From the IMG/VR virus record IMGVR_UViG_2639762960_000007: DNA of 38,405 bases. The stretch is one strand, 5' to 3'. Position 1 is the first letter of the stretch, and each line of letters opens with the position of its first letter. The DNA comes from a virus (taxonomy: Duplodnaviria > Heunggongvirae > Uroviricota > Caudoviricetes). A program made the position numbers and the translations under genes. Shown in pieces: positions 1 to 32,465 of this stretch. Below the pieces are notes generated by a model, which saw only the letters and a program-made list of their open reading frames with translations, did no database searches and had not been told where the DNA came from.

Positions 1-642
1 TTATTTATTGGCTACTGCATCAATACTTAAACTTTCAACGGAGACACCTTTGGTTTCAATTCCAATGGTGGCGATAGCAATTGCGACAATAATTGAAACA
101 GCCCCCAGAAGAATAAAGACTCCCGTTACGCCATAACTACTGAGCAGCACTGCAACGGCATAAGGCGCGGCAATACCACTGATTCGCCCTACCGCATTCG
201 CCAGACCGGAGCCACGGAGTTTGGCCTCTGTTGGCCAGATCTCAGGGACATACACTGCCGAGGCATAGCAAACGTACATATAGACGAAAGTAATCAGGAA
301 GAAACCAATCAGCGTTATGAGCAACATACTGGTTTGCAGTGAATAGATATATCCGAGCACCGCAATCAGGATTAATAGCCCCATCCCCATTGTTTTACGC
401 GGAATTTTATCCATCACCAGCATGGCAATAAAAATACCAAATGGCGCGCCAAACATACTCATGGTATTTAAAACAATCGAGTCTTTTAAATTAATTCCCT
501 GGGTCATGAATATCGTTGGCAACCAGTTAATTAGTGTGTACTGCACAACGTTCATGGCAATCAGCACACAAGAGCCTAATATCACGCGTTTCAGTGATGC
601 GCCGCGCGATAAATGCACTCTATCTTGTGCGATAAATGGCAT
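1..642 (-). CDS. MFS-family transporter, C-terminal half only (5'-truncated; probably a host gene interrupted by the prophage)
   Basis: Stop TAA at 1..3 (tta on plus strand). The 213-aa translation is about six hydrophobic helices, typical of the second half of a 12-TM MFS permease. An in-frame stop lies a few codons upstream of the first Met, so the N-terminal half is absent here. Confidence 0.6.
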   Translation of the reverse strand: MPFIAQDRVHLSRGASLKRVILGSCVLIAMNVVQYTLINWLPTIFMTQGINLKDSIVLNTMSMFGAPFGIFIAMLVMDKIPRKTMGMGLLILIAVLGYIYSLQTSMLLITLIGFFLITFVYMYVCYASAVYVPEIWPTEAKLRGSGLANAVGRISGIAAPYAVAVLLSSYGVTGVFILLGAVSIIVAIAIATIGIETKGVSVESLSIDAVANK

Positions 643-2449: not shown

Positions 2450-4042
2450 TCACGCCGCCCTCACGATATAGTTAAACGCGATATTGCGGGGGCGGGTTAT
2501 GTTAAAGAATGCTCCGTTTAATTCGGCTTTTGCGCGACTGTTTGTTCCACCCAGAATTGCGTACCACAAATAATCGCTACGGTAATTCCCCGCAAACACC
2601 TTATCGCCGCCATAGTCAATATTATTTCCGTTACTCATGTACGAGATATCCAGCGAAGAATCGTTATCGTCATGACCGCCGACCAGTGTACCTTTCTGCC
2701 ATGAAAGCAACTTACGCCCCTCGTCAATCTTGCGCCCGTCGTCCCATCCACGGATAAACTCACCGCGTAAATCAGGAAGACGGAGGGTCGGGTAGACTCT
2801 GGCCAGAACAGGATATTGTTCTTTTGTAAAGGCGCGCCCGTCGCACTTTAACCAGCCTGCTGGCGGTGTGGCGGTGGGCCATGGAACCGGTACACCAACA
2901 GGCAATGCAGAGCCTTCCCCCAAACCAAGGTAATTGAGGACATCTTTTATACTGCCCTTAGCGATAATCGCGCGACCAATAGCTGTAAGGGTTGCCAGCG
3001 CTGCGCGGTCTGCTCCGGTAAAATAAGGCAACCGATCTGCTGCAGTGGCAAGTCCTGCGAGAGCAGTGAGCGTGGCATCTGCCGGTTGTTTTCCGTTTGC
3101 CAGATCGTATGCAGCCTTGACCGCTTTCGGTGTGGCGGCCAGTATTTCAGACGTGCTGTTGATGGCACTGCTCAGTTGTACGGTGCCTTTTGCCGTCAGC
3201 GAGGCAGCAGGCACTCCCGTTATCTGACTCCACGGGTGAGTGTGGCTGACGGGCGCCTTGCCGGCTGCAAGGTCGTATGCAGCCTTGACCGCCTTCGGCG
3301 TGGCAGCCTCAGTTTCTGATTGACTGTCCGTGGCGCTGCTCAGTTGTACGGTGCCTTTTGCCGTCAGTGAAGCCGCAGGCACTCCCGTTATCTGACTCCA
3401 CGGGTGAGTGTGGCTGGCAGGCGCCTTGCCGGCTGCCAGGTCGTATGCAGCCTTGACCGCTTTCGGTGTGGCGGCCAGCGTTTCAGACGTGCTGTTGATG
3501 GCACTGCTCAGTTGTACGATCCCTTTACGGGTCGTTGTTGCATCCTGGGCTGTGTATTTTCCCCGGGCCAGATCATACGCGATTTTCACAGCCTTCGGCG
3601 TGGCAGCCTCAGTTTCTGATTGACTGTCCGTGGCGCTGCTCAGTTGTACGGTGCCTTTTGCCGTCAGTGAAGCCGCAGGCACTCCCGTTATCTGACTCCA
3701 CGGGTGAGTGTGGCTGGCAGGCGCCTTGCCGGCTGCCAGGTCGTATGCAGCCTTGACCGCTTTTGGTGTGGCGGCCAGCGTTTCAGAGGTGCTGTTGGTG
3801 GCACTGCTCAGTTGGGTGAACCCCTTAGCTGTCAGTGTCGCGTCCGGGTGGTTACGGGAACGTACGTGTTCAGCCAGTGACTGTGCGGCTTCCTCCGTTT
3901 TCTTCTTCAGCCATTTCGTCCTGTTTGCCAGTTGCCGGGGGGCTCGATTTGATATCCCGTCTGCACCACCCAGAACCGGATCTGATGTCTCCAGTTGATA
4001 GATATTTTCTTCCCACTTTTCTGTTTCATTCAGGTTTCCCAT
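2450..4042 (-). CDS. Tail fibre protein with tandem phage-fibre repeats; C-terminal ~93 aa lie inside the invertible segment
   Basis: ATG at 4040..4042 (the track start at 4048 is TTG); the upstream gene's TGA sits at 4045..4047. Repeated SHTHPWSQITGVPAASLTAKGTVQLSSAT..ATPKAVKAAYDLA units are fibre-repeat-like. Lies directly downstream of the baseplate J/I genes. Confidence 0.85.
   Translation of the reverse strand: MGNLNETEKWEENIYQLETSDPVLGGADGISNRAPRQLANRTKWLKKKTEEAAQSLAEHVRSRNHPDATLTAKGFTQLSSATNSTSETLAATPKAVKAAYDLAAGKAPASHTHPWSQITGVPAASLTAKGTVQLSSATDSQSETEAATPKAVKIAYDLARGKYTAQDATTTRKGIVQLSSAINSTSETLAATPKAVKAAYDLAAGKAPASHTHPWSQITGVPAASLTAKGTVQLSSATDSQSETEAATPKAVKAAYDLAAGKAPVSHTHPWSQITGVPAASLTAKGTVQLSSAINSTSEILAATPKAVKAAYDLANGKQPADATLTALAGLATAADRLPYFTGADRAALATLTAIGRAIIAKGSIKDVLNYLGLGEGSALPVGVPVPWPTATPPAGWLKCDGRAFTKEQYPVLARVYPTLRLPDLRGEFIRGWDDGRKIDEGRKLLSWQKGTLVGGHDDNDSSLDISYMSNGNNIDYGGDKVFAGNYRSDYLWYAILGGTNSRAKAELNGAFFNITRPRNIAFNYIVRAA
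2730..2928 (-). repeat. Right arm of the ~199-bp inverted repeat (inside the tail-fibre coding sequence)
   Basis: Reverse complement matches 1312..1510. Confidence 0.85.
3050..3870 (-). repeat. Tandem near-identical coding repeats inside the tail-fibre gene
   Basis: Blocks such as ccgtcagtgaagccgcaggcactcccgttatctgactccacgggtgagtgtggctggcag recur at about 3361 and 3661 (300 bp apart), with a related copy near 3210. Confidence 0.8.
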
Positions 4043-4623: not shown

Positions 4624-5719
4624 CAGACACTCCACTCATGTTAAGTGTGATCGCCGTACAGTTTGCCCATTCGTTTTCTGCCACCACCCTCAGTGCCGGT
4701 GTCACCAGTTCAACCTGGTACACCCCGGAAACGGACAATGCACTGATAATCTGGCTGGGGACAATATCACGCCCCAGCGTGGCGGCACGTGATGCCACCC
4801 AGTTCTGTATGGCGCTGTTAGCGGCATCTTTTACAGACCTGGCATCCTGATCACGATAGATCGTAATCCTGGCTTCAATGGTGTAATCCACCTTCACTGG
4901 TGTTTTAGCCCGCACTGTATCAGTGAGTGGCCTGACTTTCTCATCAGAGCAGAAACTCTCTACCAGCGTGAGAACACCGCCGTCCGGCAGACCGGTACTG
5001 AGCAGCGGATACAGATCTACGGTCCCGGGAACCGGGGAAAGCACAGCAACATCGACAATGTTGGGATGGGCCTGCATGGCATGAAAGCGGTATGCGCCAC
5101 GGCTTCCGGCATTGGTGAATGACTCCGGGGCCAGCCTGATACGCTCCCGGAGCCTGTCATCGTCTTCCTGTTCTGAACCGCCGGAACTGGCCGTCAGATT
5201 GCTCACCAGCAGGTCGACGTTATCAATCTCATCGAGTAACTGACTGACCTGCGCAGGTTGCCAGCCGTTACCAGCGGTACCGGGTTCGGTACAGGTGGAC
5301 GTGACATTGACCAGCAGCAATCCGGCCTTCAGTACCACATCTGTATCGGTGGCAAAAATAACGCTGTCGGAAGCGCTGACGCGGGTGCCTGCCGGGATCA
5401 GCACATCAATGGCCAGTGCCTCATCTACGGAGAACTGGAGCGTGGTAGTGGCAGGCTGCGCGGCAAGACGGTATACACCGACCAGTTCACCGAGGTAATC
5501 AATCATCGGCTCACGGGCAAAGGCGACCAGATTCTGCTTTGCTGCCTCCTGTACCGCAACCCTGACCAGCATTTCGCGATAGGCCCACAGATCAATCAGC
5601 AGACGCTCTGCCTGTGCCGGGTACAGCGTTTTGCCGGTATCCGCTTCATACTTCGCAATCATTTCTGCCGTGATTTTGTCGGCATCGCGTTCAATAAAAT
5701 CGGGTTCTGTCAGCGCCAT
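4616..5719 (-). CDS. Baseplate wedge protein, P2 gpJ-like
   Basis: 367 aa; ATG at 5717..5719; order W-J-I-fibre as in P2-type baseplates. Confidence 0.8.
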   Translation of the reverse strand: MALTEPDFIERDADKITAEMIAKYEADTGKTLYPAQAERLLIDLWAYREMLVRVAVQEAAKQNLVAFAREPMIDYLGELVGVYRLAAQPATTTLQFSVDEALAIDVLIPAGTRVSASDSVIFATDTDVVLKAGLLLVNVTSTCTEPGTAGNGWQPAQVSQLLDEIDNVDLLVSNLTASSGGSEQEDDDRLRERIRLAPESFTNAGSRGAYRFHAMQAHPNIVDVAVLSPVPGTVDLYPLLSTGLPDGGVLTLVESFCSDEKVRPLTDTVRAKTPVKVDYTIEARITIYRDQDARSVKDAANSAIQNWVASRAATLGRDIVPSQIISALSVSGVYQVELVTPALRVVAENEWANCTAITLNMSGVSDD

Positions 5720-13241: not shown

Positions 13242-14668
13242 CAGTTGCCCCCTTTCAGGGTTAACAGGTATTCCGAGGTGATCTCAGTCTCAAACGTCAG
13301 TCGCTCCAGCGGCGGTGGTGGCGTATATTTGTAGCTCAGCAACAGGTGCCCGGCGGCCAGCTCCGTCTCCGGATTGCGGGCCGGATCAAACCAGCAACGG
13401 AAGCCCAGTACCGCACCATCACCAGTCATTTTGCGACCGTAGGCGTTGACCGACTCCGTCAGTGCATCAATCAGCGCCTGAGTAATCGGCATGTCGATGT
13501 ACTGCTGGCTGAAATAACGAATGGACTCGTTGATCACATCACCGGTGCGGCGAACGTTCTCAAAGTTACGCATATGGGTGACCGTTGGCCATGCTGCCGT
13601 CCGGTTACCCCACAGACGAAGGCCGCTGCCGTAACTGCTGAATACCGTGGTGATCCCCTGTTCGTTAAGCAGGTTCACCTCACTCTGCGGGTCATCAATC
13701 ATCGCGGACAGCTGGCGCTCCACGCCGGTGATCCCCAGAATCTCCTGATTGGAGGATGACCACCAGTAGCCCTTGTCCAGATCGACTCTGGCACGCAGAC
13801 CTGCTGCACGCTGGCTGAGCGGCTCCAGACGCTCTGTGTTTGTCACCGGGTCATATACCTTCACATGCGGATAGCACAGACGGACGCGGTCGGAGCTGGT
13901 ATTGAAGTTGATGGTGCCTTCCGGGCCACGACCTGCCAGAGCCTGTGCAAAGGTGGTACCGACAGGCGCATCAATGTAGGTTACCGCGCCCAGCTTCTCT
14001 GCCATGGCGATAAGCTCAACTGCGACACTCTTCTGGGTGCAGAACACCGGCGCAATCAGAATTTTGGCGAAATAGCCGTACAGGTTGAAGCTGTCGTTAA
14101 GCAGCTTCATGCCGGTTCGGTTTCCGGCGCTGTTCACCCCGCCGATGATGTCCGCCGCAGTCACCTTCGACGGGTCCGCGTACTCATAGCTCACCTTCAC
14201 GCTGCCACCGGCCTCAATAGCCTTGCCCAGGTTCGTGAGCACACCCGCCTGCGCATCAACACGGTAGTCCGTGTTCGCCGTGTGGGTGGTGCTGCCTTCA
14301 CTGTTTTTCACCACCACATTAGCGACAACCGGATGCGCCAGTCTGGCCTGCCCTGTCGATTTGTCAAAGGTAACCACCTCATCCTCGATCGCCGTTTTAT
14401 GTTTCGCCGGGTCGAGGACGTTAATGACCAGAACGGTGCCTGCACCATGGTCATAAATCGCATCCAGCGCCTGCGGAATGGTAAAGCCGGTGAACTGGCT
14501 GCCAAATGCCGCTGCGTCTTTCTCAGACAGGCACTGTACCAGCGTATTGACATCCCCCATCGGGGCGGTACCAATCAGGCCAATAACGGCAGATTTCACC
14601 GTTTTAACCGGGCGGGCACCGTTTTCCACCTCAATGGTTTCGGGACCATGCAGATAGTTAGCTGCCAT
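13241..14668 (-). CDS. Contractile tail sheath protein (P2 FI-like)
   Basis: 475 aa; ATG at 14666..14668 preceded by GGAGG; size and position typical of myovirus sheath. Confidence 0.9.
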   Translation of the reverse strand: MAANYLHGPETIEVENGARPVKTVKSAVIGLIGTAPMGDVNTLVQCLSEKDAAAFGSQFTGFTIPQALDAIYDHGAGTVLVINVLDPAKHKTAIEDEVVTFDKSTGQARLAHPVVANVVVKNSEGSTTHTANTDYRVDAQAGVLTNLGKAIEAGGSVKVSYEYADPSKVTAADIIGGVNSAGNRTGMKLLNDSFNLYGYFAKILIAPVFCTQKSVAVELIAMAEKLGAVTYIDAPVGTTFAQALAGRGPEGTINFNTSSDRVRLCYPHVKVYDPVTNTERLEPLSQRAAGLRARVDLDKGYWWSSSNQEILGITGVERQLSAMIDDPQSEVNLLNEQGITTVFSSYGSGLRLWGNRTAAWPTVTHMRNFENVRRTGDVINESIRYFSQQYIDMPITQALIDALTESVNAYGRKMTGDGAVLGFRCWFDPARNPETELAAGHLLLSYKYTPPPPLERLTFETEITSEYLLTLKGGN

Positions 14669-25698: not shown

Positions 25699-26469
25699 AT
25701 GAAAATGCAGACATTACCCATCGTTCCATGGATTGGTGGCAAACGCCGCCTTGCAAAACACATCCTGCCGCTGTTTCCGGCGCATGAATGTTATGTGGAG
25801 CCGTTTTGTGGGGCAGCAGCGCTCTATTTTCTTAAGGTACCCGGCAAGATCGAAGTCATTAATGATATCAACGGTGAGCTGGTGAACCTGTATCGGGTGG
25901 TAAAACATCATCTGGAAGAATTTGTACGCCAGTTCAAATGGGCGCTGGTCAGCCGGCAGATCTACAAATGGCTGCAGATCACCCCGGAAGAAACACTGAC
26001 GGATATCCAGCGTGCAGCACGGTTCTACTACCTTCAGAAGCAGGCGTTTGGGGGCAAGGTGGCGGAGCACAGCTTTGGTACCTCCACCATATCCCCGCCA
26101 CGCTTCAACCTGCTGCGTATTGAAGAAGAACTGTCAGCGGCACACCTGCGGCTTTCCAGAACGGTCATAGAACACATGGACTGGCAACAGTGCATAGAAC
26201 GATATGATCGCCCGCATACGTTGTTCTACTGTGACCCTCCATACTGGGGAACGGAAGGTTATGGTGTGGAGTTCGGACTAGAAAATTATGATCATATGGC
26301 AGATTTAGCACGCAGGATCAAAGGGAAGATGATTATATCGGTGAACGATATCCCGGAAATGCGGCAGGCATTCAACGGTCTAAATATTCAGTCGGTTGAT
26401 ATCAGCTACAACCTCAAGATCACTGGCAAATCCAGTCGCAAGAAGGAACTCATTATCCTCAACTTTTGA
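25699..26469 (+). CDS. N6-adenine DNA methyltransferase, Dam (D12 class)-like, orphan
   Basis: 256 aa; ATG at 25699; motif I-like EPFCGAAAL and catalytic DPPY (FYCDPPYW); no adjacent restriction endonuclease candidate. Confidence 0.85.
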   Translation: MKMQTLPIVPWIGGKRRLAKHILPLFPAHECYVEPFCGAAALYFLKVPGKIEVINDINGELVNLYRVVKHHLEEFVRQFKWALVSRQIYKWLQITPEETLTDIQRAARFYYLQKQAFGGKVAEHSFGTSTISPPRFNLLRIEEELSAAHLRLSRTVIEHMDWQQCIERYDRPHTLFYCDPPYWGTEGYGVEFGLENYDHMADLARRIKGKMIISVNDIPEMRQAFNGLNIQSVDISYNLKITGKSSRKKELIILNF

Positions 26470-27664
26470 CCGAATAGTAAGACTTCATGCAGTGAATCAA
26501 GTACTGCATGAAGTCAAGGGCTGGTTTTGTGTACCAAAAATAAACAGTGATAGCGGTAATAATTCCCATAACTAGAACACCACGTATAATCCAGAACGTA
26601 CGTTTCTGCGTGTCTAGTCGCGCAGAAATACTGCTAAATACACCAGCCACGTCATCTTTAATGAAGGAATATTCCTTATTAATCTGTTTTTCTTTGTATT
26701 CAATTTCTTCGCCTAAGGCCTTTATAGATTGCATCTGGTTCGAAAGTGCCAGCCAGATTAACGTTGCAGCAAAAATGCATCCCAGAAGAATTATTGTGTT
26801 TGTTATCCCTTGGCCTGACCATTTCGTAGCCACTTTGAATTGGGTAGCTACGATAACAGAGGCAACAGGAATGCCAAGTATATGGTTCTGGATATCTGAA
26901 AACGCTTTGTGGATTTTACCCATTTCTTCGACTTTTGCAGCACGCAGTTGATCCATTACTTTGTCATAAGAGAATCCAGAAGAGTAGATACGATACCCTT
27001 TCAGAAACTTTTCATGCAGACGCTGAATATTGTCCAGTAAATAAGCGAATACTAGAGGTGAATCAATTCCATCACTAACTGCTTGAATACTTTCAATCAG
27101 AATATCTAGCTTCTGATCCTTATGGGTATCATCATTGAAACAAGCTATAAGGTTATCAAGATACTCCCTTTGCAAATTTTGTACATTTTCTGCAGCGAAG
27201 TGCGGTAATAGCTTGATAACTTCTTTTTTCAGAAAAACTAACTGACAAGTTGAGTTATCAAAGTAGGCCGCGGCCTCTTTTAGCAGGTTAACGAACTCGA
27301 GAATCTTCCGGTAGTTGCTGATGAAAACGGGGATATCTTCATCATCATTACGAAATTTTGTTTCTAGGATGAAGTAATTAGCTGGCTCAAGGCACTGATG
27401 CTTTGGAGCATTTAGCAATTTTTCATGGGTGGAAAACACAAGTCCCAGTCCACTCCGTGGTGACGTCACACGTAGGATGATCGTGTTACCTGGAGCGATA
27501 GTGCCTGTATCAATAGAAAGACCATATTCACGAGGATCATCAAGCAAAGTATCAACCAGATCACAATCGGACTGATCTAAGAGCAACAGCGAACCGACAC
27601 GAAACCCCTCTTGGAATTCCATACGACGATACAGAGCTGTCAGCATCTCAAATGAAATCGCCAC
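26459..27664 (-). CDS. Protein with ~270-aa soluble N-terminal domain and three C-terminal TM helices; second gene of the repressor-linked cassette (candidate effector)
   Basis: 401-aa ORF starting at GTG 27662..27664, two nt after the upstream gene's TAA, with GAGG upstream; alternative ATG at 27646. Hydrophobic segments IPVASVIVATQF, ITNTIILLGCIFAATLIWLALS and TFWIIRGVLVMGIITAITVYFWY. AT-rich codon usage. Confidence 0.65.
   Translation of the reverse strand: MAISFEMLTALYRRMEFQEGFRVGSLLLLDQSDCDLVDTLLDDPREYGLSIDTGTIAPGNTIILRVTSPRSGLGLVFSTHEKLLNAPKHQCLEPANYFILETKFRNDDEDIPVFISNYRKILEFVNLLKEAAAYFDNSTCQLVFLKKEVIKLLPHFAAENVQNLQREYLDNLIACFNDDTHKDQKLDILIESIQAVSDGIDSPLVFAYLLDNIQRLHEKFLKGYRIYSSGFSYDKVMDQLRAAKVEEMGKIHKAFSDIQNHILGIPVASVIVATQFKVATKWSGQGITNTIILLGCIFAATLIWLALSNQMQSIKALGEEIEYKEKQINKEYSFIKDDVAGVFSSISARLDTQKRTFWIIRGVLVMGIITAITVYFWYTKPALDFMQYLIHCMKSYYSVKS
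26481..26515. other. Perfect 13-bp-stem inverted repeat at the convergent junction of the methyltransferase and cassette genes
   Basis: gacttcatgcagt-gaatcaagt-actgcatgaagtc, 12 nt after the methyltransferase stop and inside the last ~20 codons of the minus-strand membrane-protein ORF. Confidence 0.4.
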
Positions 27665-27666
27665 GA

Positions 27667-28674
27667 TTAAACCTCAGTCATCCACATTTCCCTAAATTCT
27701 TCAGGTACATTACGTAGGGTGATAATATTTGTTTCCGGATCATAATCAATATAGCCTTCAGTTTTCCCTTCCCGGTCAAACTTAAGTTCCCAATATTTAG
27801 ACTTGCCTTTAAAAGATACCAGAGCCCGAATGACTCGACCATCAGGAACGAAGCCATCCGATAACTCCAACTCTTCAGCAGCAAGTTTACCAGATAACTC
27901 CTCGGGAGCCTGGGGCCAAATGGCATTAACAAGGGTTTCAAGACTAAGTGGTTCACCAGCCTTACTTAGTGCATGTAAGTGTTCAAACGCACTCTTAAGA
28001 AATGCATCTTTTTCAGCGCCGTCAAGTCCTTTCTCTGCCGCAAATGCTTTTAAAACGTCACGTAACTTTTCAGACTCTCGTTTGGCGATTAAGACATCAT
28101 TACAGCCTAGGAACTGTTTAAAATAGTTTGAAACATTACCTTGCCCCTTAAGAAAACTGATATAGCGCTCTGCGCCACTTTCCCACGCGGTTAAGTCAAT
28201 GCGCCCAGCCATACGCAGCTTAGCAATATCAAGATAGGTACTATCTTGGATGTTAAAATCATCTGTGACAGTGGACCCAATGGTAGCGCTTACAATAGCT
28301 ATCAACAGGTGTTCATTGTGTCCTATCACGATATTTGCAAAAAGAACATAACCACCAGTAGCCATGTTTTCTCGCTGAGAACGTTCCGTCAGGTGATGCA
28401 TCATTCGGCAGGAACTTTGGTAGAAATCATCAACACCTTCGAGAAAGTCCCCAGCCATTCGTTCCATAGGATAGTTATCCGTATCGCCTTCAAAATAGCC
28501 ATAACCTTTACCTGTGCGTCCTGCATATTTTGCACAAATATCGTTTATAAGGCGCTGAGAGGCTTCAGTAACTAGACCTTCTTCAGGACTCAATCTCTCA
28601 GAAGCGTCTCCATTTTGTTGTTTGTCTAAAATGTGAACTACAACGTGTTTAACTTCAATGGTCTGCTCAGACAT
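27667..28674 (-). CDS. NdpA/YejK (NA37)-like nucleoid-associated-protein homologue; first gene of the repressor-linked cassette (candidate sensor)
   Basis: 335 aa; ATG at 28672..28674 preceded by GGTGGA. It matches the length and several blocks of E. coli YejK as I recall it (GGYVLF, LLIAIVS, YLDIAKLRMAGRIDLTAWESG, RYISFLKGQG, IITLRNVPEEFRE). The family call is from memory, not a search. Confidence 0.55.
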   Translation of the reverse strand: MSEQTIEVKHVVVHILDKQQNGDASERLSPEEGLVTEASQRLINDICAKYAGRTGKGYGYFEGDTDNYPMERMAGDFLEGVDDFYQSSCRMMHHLTERSQRENMATGGYVLFANIVIGHNEHLLIAIVSATIGSTVTDDFNIQDSTYLDIAKLRMAGRIDLTAWESGAERYISFLKGQGNVSNYFKQFLGCNDVLIAKRESEKLRDVLKAFAAEKGLDGAEKDAFLKSAFEHLHALSKAGEPLSLETLVNAIWPQAPEELSGKLAAEELELSDGFVPDGRVIRALVSFKGKSKYWELKFDREGKTEGYIDYDPETNIITLRNVPEEFREMWMTEV

Positions 28675-28744
28675 TGGCTATCCACCTTATTTTTTATTGC
28701 TTAATGGCAAATAATTTCTGCTATATGTTCTCGTTAGGAACACA

Positions 28745-29152
28745 TTAACCCACATTTTTTAACCGCTCAATCGTTGCGGATAATTCCTTCAGTTGTTTTT
28801 CCATCTCAATCACACGCTGTTTTTCTTCAGCGCCTCGCATGAGATCTCGCCGAACCTCAGGATCTAACTGGTTTAGAAGTTCAAGCATTTTAAGGTCTGA
28901 CGGGCTGAATTGATGTTGTGTTGGTACAGCAACAATTTCTTTAGATGGAATATGTTCTTTACCGGTAAGTAGCCAATCGATTGATACACCCAAATGGGTA
29001 CTTAGCGCAACAAGAGCCTCTGCGTTTGGTTCTCTCTCTCCACGCAAATAGTTTTGAAGTGAGCGATATGGAATTTTTGATAAGTCAGATAATGCCTTTA
29101 TTGTCATGCCATTAGCATCCATCACTTCACGCAATCTCTCTTTTGTACTCAT
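28745..29152 (-). CDS. Phage repressor, HTH (XRE/Cro-C1 type) with C-terminal coiled coil
   Basis: ATG at 29150..29152 gives 135 aa starting MSTKERLREVMDANGMTIKALSDLSKIPYRSLQNYLRG; divergent from the early operon across an operator-like region. Confidence 0.7.
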   Translation of the reverse strand: MSTKERLREVMDANGMTIKALSDLSKIPYRSLQNYLRGEREPNAEALVALSTHLGVSIDWLLTGKEHIPSKEIVAVPTQHQFSPSDLKMLELLNQLDPEVRRDLMRGAEEKQRVIEMEKQLKELSATIERLKNVG

Positions 29153-29168
29153 TTGAACATATCTCAAT

Positions 29169-29196
29169 TTGACACACTCATTTGGGTGTGTACAAT
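29169..29196 (+). promoter_or_regulatory. Candidate early promoter (-35 TTGACA, 16-bp spacer, -10 TACAAT) overlapped by an operator-like dyad
   Basis: TTGACA at 29169..29174 and TACAAT at 29191..29196, 45 bp upstream of the Ner-like ATG; dyad ACACAC-N8-GTGTGT (29172..29191) spans the spacer. Confidence 0.5.
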
Positions 29197-29240
29197 AGAC
29201 CCAATAGAGTACATCATAACCTAACAGGAACACGGTGCAT

Positions 29241-29465
29241 ATGAACAAACAACAAGTTCGGGCACGGCTGGTTGAACGAGGCAGTAGCTTGCGCCAGTTC
29301 GCGCTTAACGCGGGCTATGAACCACGAACAGTCACCCAGGCAGTCAGTCGCTGGGCTGGTAAAAGTGAACTACCTCGCGGTCGTTTGACTTATCGGATTT
29401 TGCGAGATCTATCGGTTGCAATAGGTAAAGAAGTTACCCCCGGTATCCTTAAGGAGGCGTCATGA
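29241..29465 (+). CDS. ner: Ner-like DNA-binding protein
   Basis: ATG at 29241 (track start is GTG two codons upstream); 74 aa with LRQFALNAGYEPRTVTQAVSRW resembling the Mu Ner HTH region; first gene of the early operon. Confidence 0.65.
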   Translation: MNKQQVRARLVERGSSLRQFALNAGYEPRTVTQAVSRWAGKSELPRGRLTYRILRDLSVAIGKEVTPGILKEAS

Positions 29466-30695: not shown

Positions 30696-32465
30696 ATGAA
30701 TGCTGCCCTGACTGAACGACTGGTTTATGTCGCCCGCGCGGCACGTGACGCGGGGCATGGTAAACGCGGTGCAATATACGACGCTGCCTGTGCTGAACTT
30801 GGCATGTCCCGCGCCACTCTGCTGCGCAGGCTGAAGGAGGTCTCTGTGACTGATAAACGCAAAAAACGCGCCGATGCCGGGCGCAGCGCCCTGACCCGCG
30901 ACGAAGCCGCGCTGATATCTGCCACACTGCGTGAGGCCACCCGCAAGAACGGTAAGCGTCTCTATTCCATCGCAGATGCAGTGGAAACCCTGCGGGCTAA
31001 CGGCTTTATCTCCGCAGGCAGAACAGATGAAACCACCGGTGAGTTTTTCCCGTTGTCCGAAGATGCCATCAGCCGTGCCCTGCGTAACTATGGCCTGCAC
31101 CCGGAACAACTGGATGCCCCTGCGCCGCATACCGAAGTGGCCAGTCTGCATCCCAATCACGTCTGGCAGATTGATGCCTCGCTCTGCACGCTTTACTACC
31201 TGAGCAATGGACACAAAGGGCTGCAGGTGATGGACAGCGCGAAATTCTACAAGAACAAGCCCGCTAACCTTGCCCGTATCGCCAGTGACCGCGTGTGGAG
31301 TTATGAGATTACCGACCATGCCAGCGGCTGGATTTACGTTGAGTATGTGACGGGTGCGGAATCCGGTGAGAACCTGTGTTCTGTGCTTATCAACGCCATG
31401 CAGGAGCGTGGCGGCGCAGACGTGCTGCACGGCGTGCCAAAAATACTCTATCTCGACCCCGGCTCGGCAAACACCGCGGGTATGACGAAAAACATGTGCC
31501 GCTCACTGGGCATTGACCTGATAGCGCACAAGCCGCATAACGCCCGCGCCACCGGACAGGTGGAAAAGGCGCGGGACATTATCGAACGCAAGCTGGAGCC
31601 GGGTCTGAAGTTCCGGCCGGTTCACAGTCTGGAAGAACTCAACGCGCTGGCCGCGAAATGGCGCAGCCACTTTAACGCCACGGCTGTTCACAGCCGCCAC
31701 GGTAAAACCCGCACGGATATCTGGCTGAAGATTACTGCTGAGCAGCTGAAAAAAGCGCCTTCCGTTGAGGTATGTCGTGAACTGGCTGTGGCGGCACCAG
31801 AACTCCGCAAAGTCACGCCAAAACTTCGTGTCTCGTTCCGGGGCACTGAATTTGACGTATCAACGGTACCGGGCGTACTGGTTGGTGAAAAACTGATGAT
31901 TACCCGTAACCCATGGCGCAGCGATGTGGCACAGGTGGTTCTGACCGGTGAGGACGGCCACGAGACGTTCTTCCTGGTCGAAGAGGTCAGAAAGAACGAG
32001 TTTGGCTTTGCTGAAGGCGCGGCGGTATTTGGCGAAAGTTACAAAGCCCTGCCGGAAACCCCGGCACAGATGGCGGCAAAAGAAACTGAAGCGCTGGTTA
32101 CCGGTACAGACAACGCCGCAGATGCAGCCGCCGCACGCAAGGCGAAGGCGCTGCCGTTCGGCGGGCGGCTTGACCCGTATAAACATATCGACGACACCAC
32201 ACTTCCGGCCTATATGCCGAAGCGTGGTCAGGCCTCTGACGTACGCGGGCCGCGCACTGAACAACGTCCCATGACTCATGTGGAGGCCGCGAAAGCCCTG
32301 CGCGATAAGTTCAGCGCCGACGGCCTTACCTGGACGCCGGAACATTACCGCCAGTTAACGGCACAGTACCCGGACGGCGTACCGGAAGCCGCACTGGATG
32401 AAGTCATGGCCACGCTGACCACACCGGCCAGCAGCAGTGTTATCAGCATTGTTAACGGCAACTGA
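30696..32465 (+). CDS. DDE transposase (Mu A-like function, integrase-core type)
   Basis: 589 aa; ATG at 30696 preceded by GGAGG; N-terminal HTH-like region; candidate catalytic acidic residues in WQIDAS and YLDPGSAN, with a downstream Glu. Confidence 0.8.
   Translation: MNAALTERLVYVARAARDAGHGKRGAIYDAACAELGMSRATLLRRLKEVSVTDKRKKRADAGRSALTRDEAALISATLREATRKNGKRLYSIADAVETLRANGFISAGRTDETTGEFFPLSEDAISRALRNYGLHPEQLDAPAPHTEVASLHPNHVWQIDASLCTLYYLSNGHKGLQVMDSAKFYKNKPANLARIASDRVWSYEITDHASGWIYVEYVTGAESGENLCSVLINAMQERGGADVLHGVPKILYLDPGSANTAGMTKNMCRSLGIDLIAHKPHNARATGQVEKARDIIERKLEPGLKFRPVHSLEELNALAAKWRSHFNATAVHSRHGKTRTDIWLKITAEQLKKAPSVEVCRELAVAAPELRKVTPKLRVSFRGTEFDVSTVPGVLVGEKLMITRNPWRSDVAQVVLTGEDGHETFFLVEEVRKNEFGFAEGAAVFGESYKALPETPAQMAAKETEALVTGTDNAADAAAARKAKALPFGGRLDPYKHIDDTTLPAYMPKRGQASDVRGPRTEQRPMTHVEAAKALRDKFSADGLTWTPEHYRQLTAQYPDGVPEAALDEVMATLTTPASSSVISIVNGN

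Follow-up and report, generated by a model that had tools for sequence, protein, structure and literature searches.

The window analysed here, the whole 38,405-nucleotide (nt) stretch of the IMG/VR record IMGVR_UViG_2639762960_000007, is by its gene content a BcepMu-like (Mu-like) transposable prophage of Escherichia coli, and it contains one conspicuous AT-rich island. Inside the island lie a two-gene cassette, which encodes a YejK-like nucleoid-associated protein (NAP) of the NA37 family and a 401-amino-acid (aa) partner with a predicted membrane domain, the prophage repressor gene directly upstream on the same strand, and a divergent promoter region. We suggest that the island is probably the lysogeny side of the prophage and that the cassette is probably a distant member of an anti-phage family published in 2026 as DS-1 or type II PANGU, with a mode of action that can be proposed by analogy. 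An earlier note on this DNA had taken the AT-richness of 26470-28740 as the mark of a recently acquired moron in the immunity region. The compositional observation was confirmed in this study, but the conclusion of recency was not. The principal features are as follows.

26300 to 29240, no strand: the full AT-rich island, 41.3% GC, extending over both cassette genes, the repressor gene and the region of the divergent promoters (200-nt profile and segment counts)
26451 to 28724, no strand: the segment swapped with respect to cassette-less relatives, 2274 bp, 41.2% GC (blastn against loci L003 and L001, junction alignments)
27667 to 28674, minus strand: first cassette gene, YejK-like NAP of the NA37 family, 335 aa, the proposed sensor (Pfam NA37, 1e-80, full length)
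26459 to 27664, minus strand: second cassette gene, partner protein of 401 aa, the proposed membrane effector, with a GTG start 2 nt past the NA37 stop codon (PHROG 5023, 1.9e-142, function unknown)

The stretch 26470-28740 contains 937 G or C among its 2271 nt (41.3%), compared with 54.0% in the window as a whole and 54.8% outside this stretch, so that the dip sought by a sliding-window analysis is present and significant (binomial z = −13.0). The lowest GC content among all sliding windows of 2271 bp (41.1%) belongs to the one starting at 26530, within this stretch; non-overlapping windows gave 0.467 and 0.432 at the cassette and 0.495-0.593 elsewhere, and the sliding profile identifies the dip as the strongest compositional feature of the whole window. 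The two samples on which the earlier note was based were recounted: 27001-27060 indeed contains 23/60 GC, and the tail-region sample at 13301-13360 is GC-rich as described, although its exact count is 39/60 (65%) and not 38/60, a trivial slip. The AT-rich codon usage ascribed to the cassette genes was also reproduced. Third codon positions have a GC content (GC3) of 0.39 in the 401-aa gene and of 0.345 in the NA37 gene, with evenly low values in every 100-codon block (0.31-0.45), whereas the head and tail genes have values of 0.51-0.72 (mostly 0.54-0.72) and the flanking host genes 0.52-0.59. The codon adaptation index (CAI) is low for both cassette genes and for the repressor gene, against phage genes and host genes alike. 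The repressor gene (28745-29152) has a GC content of 41.2% and a GC3 of 0.324, the minimum of the prophage. Along the 200-nt profile, GC content does not exceed 44% between about 26300 and 29240, except for values of 45-47% at about 27400-27600 and 27800-28100. The AT-rich island is broader than the cassette, and the repressor gene belongs to it as well, together with the divergent promoter region. The compositional signal is thus correct but ordinary, as low GC content is common among the accessory genes and immunity regions of temperate phages.

The first cassette protein is homologous over its full length to E. coli YejK (PDB 9BE2; 6.8e-30 by sequence, 1e-50 by profile), and its AlphaFold2 model, with a predicted local distance difference test (pLDDT) score of 85, matched the same structure in Foldseek (E 3e-19, 24% identity). 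The partner protein belongs to a family of 1274 clusters at 50% identity, nearly all of them about 400 aa long, for which Pfam has no family, and a PDB sequence search with the window protein gave no match. Its AlphaFold2 model (pLDDT 82) has a soluble alpha/beta N-terminal domain (approximately residues 1-210) followed by four long helices. Three hydrophobic segments are predicted at residues 262-280, 285-311 and 356-378, that is, in the C-terminal part, and residues 1-260 have an isoelectric point (pI) of 5.0 and a net charge of −11.

Both proteins are related to the DS-1 system, which is DefensePredictor system D390 (WP_000355468.1 and WP_000150292.1) and is recorded as defensive in E. coli (Table S6, PMC13092281). 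The NCBIfam model DS1_1_antiphage (nucleoid-associated anti-phage protein) matches the window NA37 protein with 1.4e-17, and DS1_2_antiphage (anti-phage protein) matches the 401-aa partner with 3e-21. Direct comparison of the NA37 protein with DS-1A gave 23% identity (E 8e-9), and its family profile matched with an hhalign probability of 97%. The partner is likewise 23% identical to DS-1B (BLASTP 6e-10 over about 300 residues), and the profile of the partner family aligned to DS-1B with an hhalign probability of 95% (E 3e-8, 269 columns). The two cassettes share their layout, with the NAP gene first, a gap of 2 nt, and a partner that is about 400 aa long and has hydrophobic helices in its C-terminal part. 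They differ in that DS-1A (391 aa, NA37 at 42-382) carries an N-terminal zinc-ribbon extension of about 40 residues with CxxC...CxxC in the first 25 residues, which the window protein lacks, its NA37 domain beginning at residue 12 of 335. Neither RefSeq protein of the window (WP_001007984.1, WP_000003711.1) is among the DefensePredictor table entries listed (PMC13092281). Judged by these alignments and by the sub-cutoff NCBIfam scores, the window cassette is a distant relative of DS-1 and not an equivalog.

The surroundings of the cassette bear on its expression and on its mobility, and contain the following features.

25699 to 26469, plus strand: Dam-type DNA adenine methylase gene, the left flank, GC 49%, GC3 0.58 (Pfam MethyltransfD12, 7e-28; NCBIfam dam)
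26481 to 26515, no strand: perfect 13-bp inverted repeat with a 9-nt loop, 12 nt 3' of the Dam stop codon and within the 3' end of the 401-aa gene (repeat search)
28675 to 28744, minus strand: spacer from the repressor stop codon to the NA37 start, 70 nt, with the Shine-Dalgarno sequence AAGGTGG 8 nt ahead of the ATG
28726 to 28742, no strand: palindrome TGTTC-N7-GAACA at the right-hand homology breakpoint, directly 3' of the repressor stop codon (junction alignments)
28745 to 29152, minus strand: prophage repressor gene, 135 aa from the RefSeq ATG, HTH_3 / CI-repressor type, directly upstream of the cassette (Pfam, RefSeq annotation)
29169 to 29196, plus strand: sigma-70-like site TTGACA-16-TACAAT, 11/12, the best of the region, facing the Ner-like early gene at 29241-29465
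Alternative-cargo genes of relatives: L003 3218-3745; L001 3917-4450; L015 2125-2826; L016 2509-2895

Only 50 nt of the DNA upstream of the NA37 gene is specific to the cassette, and this includes the ribosome-binding site. A scan of the spacer at 28675-28744 found neither a terminator-like nor a good promoter-like site, and an RNA hairpin or terminator fold between the repressor and NA37 genes was not significant (z −0.8). A weak promoter-like site lies within the 3' end of the repressor gene (28809-28780), and no terminator-like site was found in the scan behind the partner gene, which overlaps the Dam gene. Considering that the genes share a strand, that the gap is only 70 nt, and that there is neither a terminator nor room for a promoter of the cassette's own, the most economical explanation is that the pair would be transcribed in the lysogen by read-through from the repressor gene. 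At the edge of the island, the divergent control region of the early and repressor genes is marked by the predicted sigma-70-like site.

Comparison with relatives that lack the cassette defines its borders sharply. Homology to the prophage of E. coli HH107 and to Klebsiella phage KP12 (clone KP12_2) stops at 26450, 19 nt ahead of the Dam stop codon, and restarts at 28725, 20 nt past the repressor stop codon. The coordinates given in the earlier note are therefore nearly those of the swapped segment, 26451-28724. The HH107 counterpart is 615 bp long and contains a gene for a 175-aa lipoprotein; HH107 and KP12 share this type of replacement, a protein of 175-177 aa with the lipoprotein signal LSGC. 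On the left side, the Dam gene and the 401-aa gene are convergent and overlap by 11 nt. The inverted repeat at 26481-26515 is a possible Dam terminator, and in HH107 its place is taken by an unrelated, GC-rich hairpin. The palindrome at the right-hand breakpoint is kept behind the repressor stop codon in the cassette-less HH107 (L003, about 3767-3785) and also occurs upstream of the NA37 genes in the Klebsiella (L015) and Plesiomonas (L011) contexts. The window contains a single copy of it, a number that does not exceed chance expectation. The palindrome might bind a regulator or mark a junction of exchange. Flanking repeats were considered as insertion scars of the cassette and rejected, since only 12-mers at chance level were found.

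The cassette was found in 19 of 5426 complete E. coli genomes, and a further 44 match the flanks only; it is thus present in 19 of the 63 related E. coli prophage copies. The NA37 gene was followed by the partner gene in all 11 of the 11 distinct contexts inspected, which comprise three prophages with the pair in the slot between repressor and Dam genes, two with the pair between Dam and holin, three lambdoid types, and two that are not prophages. The repressor-Dam slot also holds the pair in the prophage lineage of E. coli C483 and in a prophage of Yersinia enterocolitica. The BcepMu-like prophages of Klebsiella and Serratia have it between Dam and holin (L015 3991-6200, L016 3991-6200), with protein identities to the window of 81-87% for NA37 and 77-81% for the partner, and the slot behind their repressors is occupied by a lipoprotein-like gene. 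Lambdoid prophages of Morganella, Salmonella and Citrobacter carry the pair between the Q antiterminator and lysis genes, and in a lambdoid prophage of Plesiomonas it adjoins int/xis. It lies beside an Mrr restriction gene in a non-phage island of Paraburkholderia and is also present in Shewanella. The closest copies outside the repressor-Dam slot (Klebsiella, Serratia, Plesiomonas) have partner protein identities of 72-81%, and no near-identical cassette was found in other contexts; a plasmid search matched only cassette-less relatives, on Enterobacter and Citrobacter plasmids. The alternative cargos behind the repressor are all small, have GC contents of 37-42% and an LSGC lipobox, and are without a Pfam family; they are candidate envelope-level superinfection-exclusion proteins.

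As judged by these gene arrangements, the pair is a mobile module, and its description as horizontally mobile accessory cargo is borne out by the different lambdoid slots and the non-phage island. The designation as a moron in the immunity region holds as far as presence or absence among collinear relatives, deviant composition and the position right behind the repressor gene are concerned; with regard to a promoter and terminator of its own, which the term implies, the scans described above gave the weak promoter-like site within the repressor gene and no terminator-like site behind the partner gene. The repressor gene itself also differs between carriers of the cassette. The Yersinia repressor gene (L010 4502-4918) has only its last 165 nt in common with the window repressor gene at 28745-29152 (91.5% identity), and its N-terminal DNA-binding part is of another kind (Phage_CI_repr). 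This suggests that recombination took place within the repressor gene and that another immunity specificity is combined with the same cargo.

Whether low GC content indicates recent acquisition has to be judged against the neighbours and relatives of the cassette. The adjacent repressor gene is equally or more AT-rich (GC3 0.324), although it is conserved in relatives without the cassette (78% nt identity to HH107; 91% to C483). The same pattern was found in the prophages of HH107, KP12, Klebsiella and Serratia, in which the repressor genes have 40-45% GC and the alternative cargos 37-42%, compared with about 59% for the late genes. In every enterobacterial context tested, the GC content of the cassette is 8-12 points lower than that of its flanks, and only the Paraburkholderia copy equals its surroundings (57%). 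The copies of C483 and Yersinia have nt identities of 91-93% and 85%, respectively, to the window cassette, and the corresponding identities of backbone genes are 79-93% and 74-86%; the cassette is about as diverged as the backbone, and a recent arrival is therefore not supported. In the Plesiomonas lambdoid prophage (L011, about 4880-4930), approximately 50 nt homologous to the 3' end of a BcepMu-type repressor gene, together with the palindrome, precede the NA37 gene, so that the cassette seems to have departed from a BcepMu context with a piece of the repressor gene. Because of this remnant, the position behind the BcepMu-type repressor would be old enough to have served as a donor, and it is taken to be the ancestral one for this clade of the cassette. 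Low GC content is a persistent property of the immunity region and its cargos across the phage family, which indicates accessory or foreign character and is silent on recency. An attempt to use substitutions as an amelioration test was uninformative on age. The GC3 of the cassette genes is 0.35-0.39 in the window copy versus 0.41-0.47 in the C483 and Yersinia copies, and polarisation with Plesiomonas as the outgroup gave 34 GC-to-AT versus 15 AT-to-GC changes on the window branch but 29 AT-to-GC versus 4 GC-to-AT changes on the C483/Yersinia branch, that is, opposite biases with an outgroup distant enough for saturation.

The earlier proposal of a recent acquisition from a low-GC donor, with AT-richness as the un-ameliorated signature of that donor, is accordingly improbable, although several observations agree with it. 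The 13-point GC gap and the sharp homology breaks are real, the cassette is present in a minority of the related E. coli copies, and the block of cassette, repressor and ner genes is 91-93% identical to C483, compared with 79-85% for the Dam, IclR-HTH and DUF3102 genes, so that this block was maybe exchanged after the backbone split. These points have to be set against the equal AT-richness of the conserved repressor gene and of all alternative cargos, the Yersinia copy in the same slot, whose divergence is roughly that of the backbone, the lack of a near-identical copy in the other contexts searched, the repressor remnant that accompanies the Plesiomonas copy, and the lack of drift toward backbone GC in the window lineage. 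It has also to be considered that low GC content may be actively maintained, either through H-NS control of lysogeny-side genes or through AT-biased mutation under weak codon selection, in which case it would report function or expression regime and not ancestry. We regard this as possible but tentative, and it is compatible with the explanation that we prefer. The conservation of AT-rich repressor and cargo genes in E. coli, Yersinia, Klebsiella and Serratia prophages with GC-rich late genes is consistent with it, as are the excess of GC-to-AT changes on the window branch and the low CAI of the repressor and cassette genes with either reference. However, the Paraburkholderia copy indicates that low GC is not intrinsic to these proteins, and the opposite bias on the C483/Yersinia branch, again with an outgroup distant enough for saturation, does not agree with active maintenance.

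A possible function of the pair is suggested by type II PANGU, which consists of a YejK-like NAP (Pag2A) and a transmembrane (TM) effector (Pag2B) with an acidic N-terminal domain, described as a DNA mimic, and a C-terminal TM domain (10.64898/2026.04.06.716658). Protection against T4 is reported to require both genes and to take the form of abortive infection, with Pag2A departing from the nucleoid once the cell is infected (10.64898/2026.04.06.716658). For type I PANGU, escape mutations were found in the T4 nuclease EndoII (10.64898/2026.04.06.716658). The window cassette likewise has a YejK-like NAP as the first component and a bicistronic operon with genes less than 40 bp apart (2 nt in the window), and type II PANGU is also present in E. 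coli. The predicted architecture of the partner may fit the description of the type II effector, with the three hydrophobic segments between residues 262 and 378 and the N-terminal domain of pI 5.0 and net charge −11. By analogy, we suggest the following order of events. The pair would be transcribed in the lysogen by read-through from the repressor gene, and the nucleoid protein would reside on the chromosome. When a superinfecting lytic phage degrades the host DNA, the nucleoid protein might be freed and bind the N-terminal domain of the membrane partner, which would then arrest or kill the cell and thereby abort the infection. It is speculation that the growth of the prophage itself does not trigger the sensor, Mu-like replication being transposition into an intact chromosome. 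A more far-reaching picture, in which Mu-like phages adopted a clade of NAP and membrane-effector pairs into the repressor operon and so exclude lytic competitors without firing in their own growth, and in which the unit of repressor 3' end, palindrome and cassette is a portable module that moved between slots and into lambdoid phages, we consider doubtful.

Several observations weigh against the interpretation of the island as a lysogeny-side defence operon related to DS-1 and type II PANGU. The window proteins scored far below the equivalog cutoffs of NF053868 and NF053869 (63.7 versus 330 bits and 75.9 versus 315 bits), and PADLOC 2023 has no model for either protein. The likeness to Pag2A and Pag2B is one of described architecture, the N-terminal domain of the partner is only moderately acidic, and fold searches with its model returned only generic helical-bundle matches. 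Co-transcription with the repressor gene is read from sequence alone, and in the Klebsiella and Serratia relatives the pair lies upstream of lysis genes instead. Two other functions were considered. Mu transposition relies on the host nucleoid proteins HU and IHF, and a full-length YejK paralogue placed in the regulatory region might serve the phage's own cycle, modulating transposition, target choice or prophage silencing with a membrane anchor. This is highly unlikely, because the pair is dispensable, most relatives lacking it or having a lipoprotein gene in its place, because the same pair occurs in non-transposing lambdoid prophages and in the island beside the Mrr gene, and because distant homologues have been validated as anti-phage systems. 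Alternatively, the partner might block DNA entry at the envelope in classical superinfection exclusion, with the NAP as an accessory and without damage-triggered abortive infection. Many genes of the sie or imm type are adjacent to a repressor, lipoproteins, to which the alternative cargos of the slot belong, are frequent among exclusion proteins, and the partner has a predicted membrane domain. Envelope exclusion is nonetheless very improbable, since the membrane protein is in every case accompanied by a conserved cytoplasmic protein that binds DNA, and since abortive infection and relocation of the NAP are reported for the type II system (10.64898/2026.04.06.716658). We consider a two-component anti-phage cassette of the DS-1 and type II PANGU kind, carried on the lysogeny side, to be the likely interpretation.

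The classification of the host element is based on its transposable-phage genes, which include a DDE transposase (30696-32465), a MuB-like ATPase, Gam, Mor, a Mu-type portal and gp27, together with P2-like tail genes on the minus strand; related deposited phages are classified as Bcepmuvirus. E. coli M-17 and three further genomes match a 3-kb sample of the cassette region (26300-29300) with 100% identity, and 9495-38405 of the window is 99.4% identical to M-17. The M-17 copy sits between rstA and rstB, whereas the left edge of the window (1-642) is a fragment of a host major facilitator superfamily (MFS) transporter gene. Insertion of the element has thus taken place at different chromosomal sites, as is expected for a transposable phage. 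In the tail-fibre region, which is also of unequal length in the two copies, a serine invertase gene (Resolvase and HTH_7, 673-1374) adjoins the tail-fibre genes, and 1307-2931 is inverted with respect to M-17. The arrangement resembles a Gin/Cin-like switch of host range, present in the window in the orientation opposite to that of M-17.

These results carry a caution for the interpretation of base composition, in that low GC content here is stable and lineage-wide and cannot be read as recency. They also place a putative member of a newly described type of defence, with a nucleoid-protein sensor and a membrane effector, among the cargo of a transposable phage, immediately downstream of its repressor gene. 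The carriers include the probiotic strain M-17, and relatives are found in Yersinia, Klebsiella and Serratia. The prophage offers a natural lysogen context in which the expression of such a system and its tolerance of replicative transposition can be studied.

Another known system of comparable layout is the cI-rexA-rexB region of phage lambda, in which a two-gene exclusion module comes right after the repressor gene on the same strand, encodes a soluble and a membrane protein, and causes abortive infection. The likeness is one of layout only, an analogy. RexB is a small protein with four TM segments, whereas the window partner is a two-domain protein of 401 aa, and the lambda Rex family was not among the Pfam and PHROG matches of either cassette protein (E ≤ 0.01). 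The chromosomal E. coli YejK (NdpA) has the same fold as the window NA37 protein and full-length homology to it. However, YejK is a stand-alone housekeeping protein, whereas the window protein is phage-borne, AT-rich and always paired with a membrane protein.

Kiwa likewise combines a membrane protein (KwaA) with a soluble DNA-binding protein (KwaB), in an order of genes reversed with respect to the window (PMC11785009). The PADLOC model for KwaA weakly matches the TM region of the partner (8e-5), and KwaB chains (9mtn, 9mrx) came next after YejK in Foldseek with the NA37 model (E 0.13-1.6). Kinship was not supported by wider searches. KwaA was matched by only 2-3 of the 39 partner relatives and KwaB by none of the 33 NA37 relatives, and profile searches of the PDB gave no KwaA or KwaB chain. 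A deep kinship of the cassette family with Kiwa is a possibility still weaker than the portable module considered above.

The PANGU systems were found by their linkage to defence islands, and the main text of the preprint does not use the word 'prophage' (10.64898/2026.04.06.716658). Unlike these, the window cassette is cargo of a Mu-like prophage right behind the repressor gene. Judged by its homology to DS-1, this cargo is a distant, prophage-borne addition to a defence family already described in 2026.

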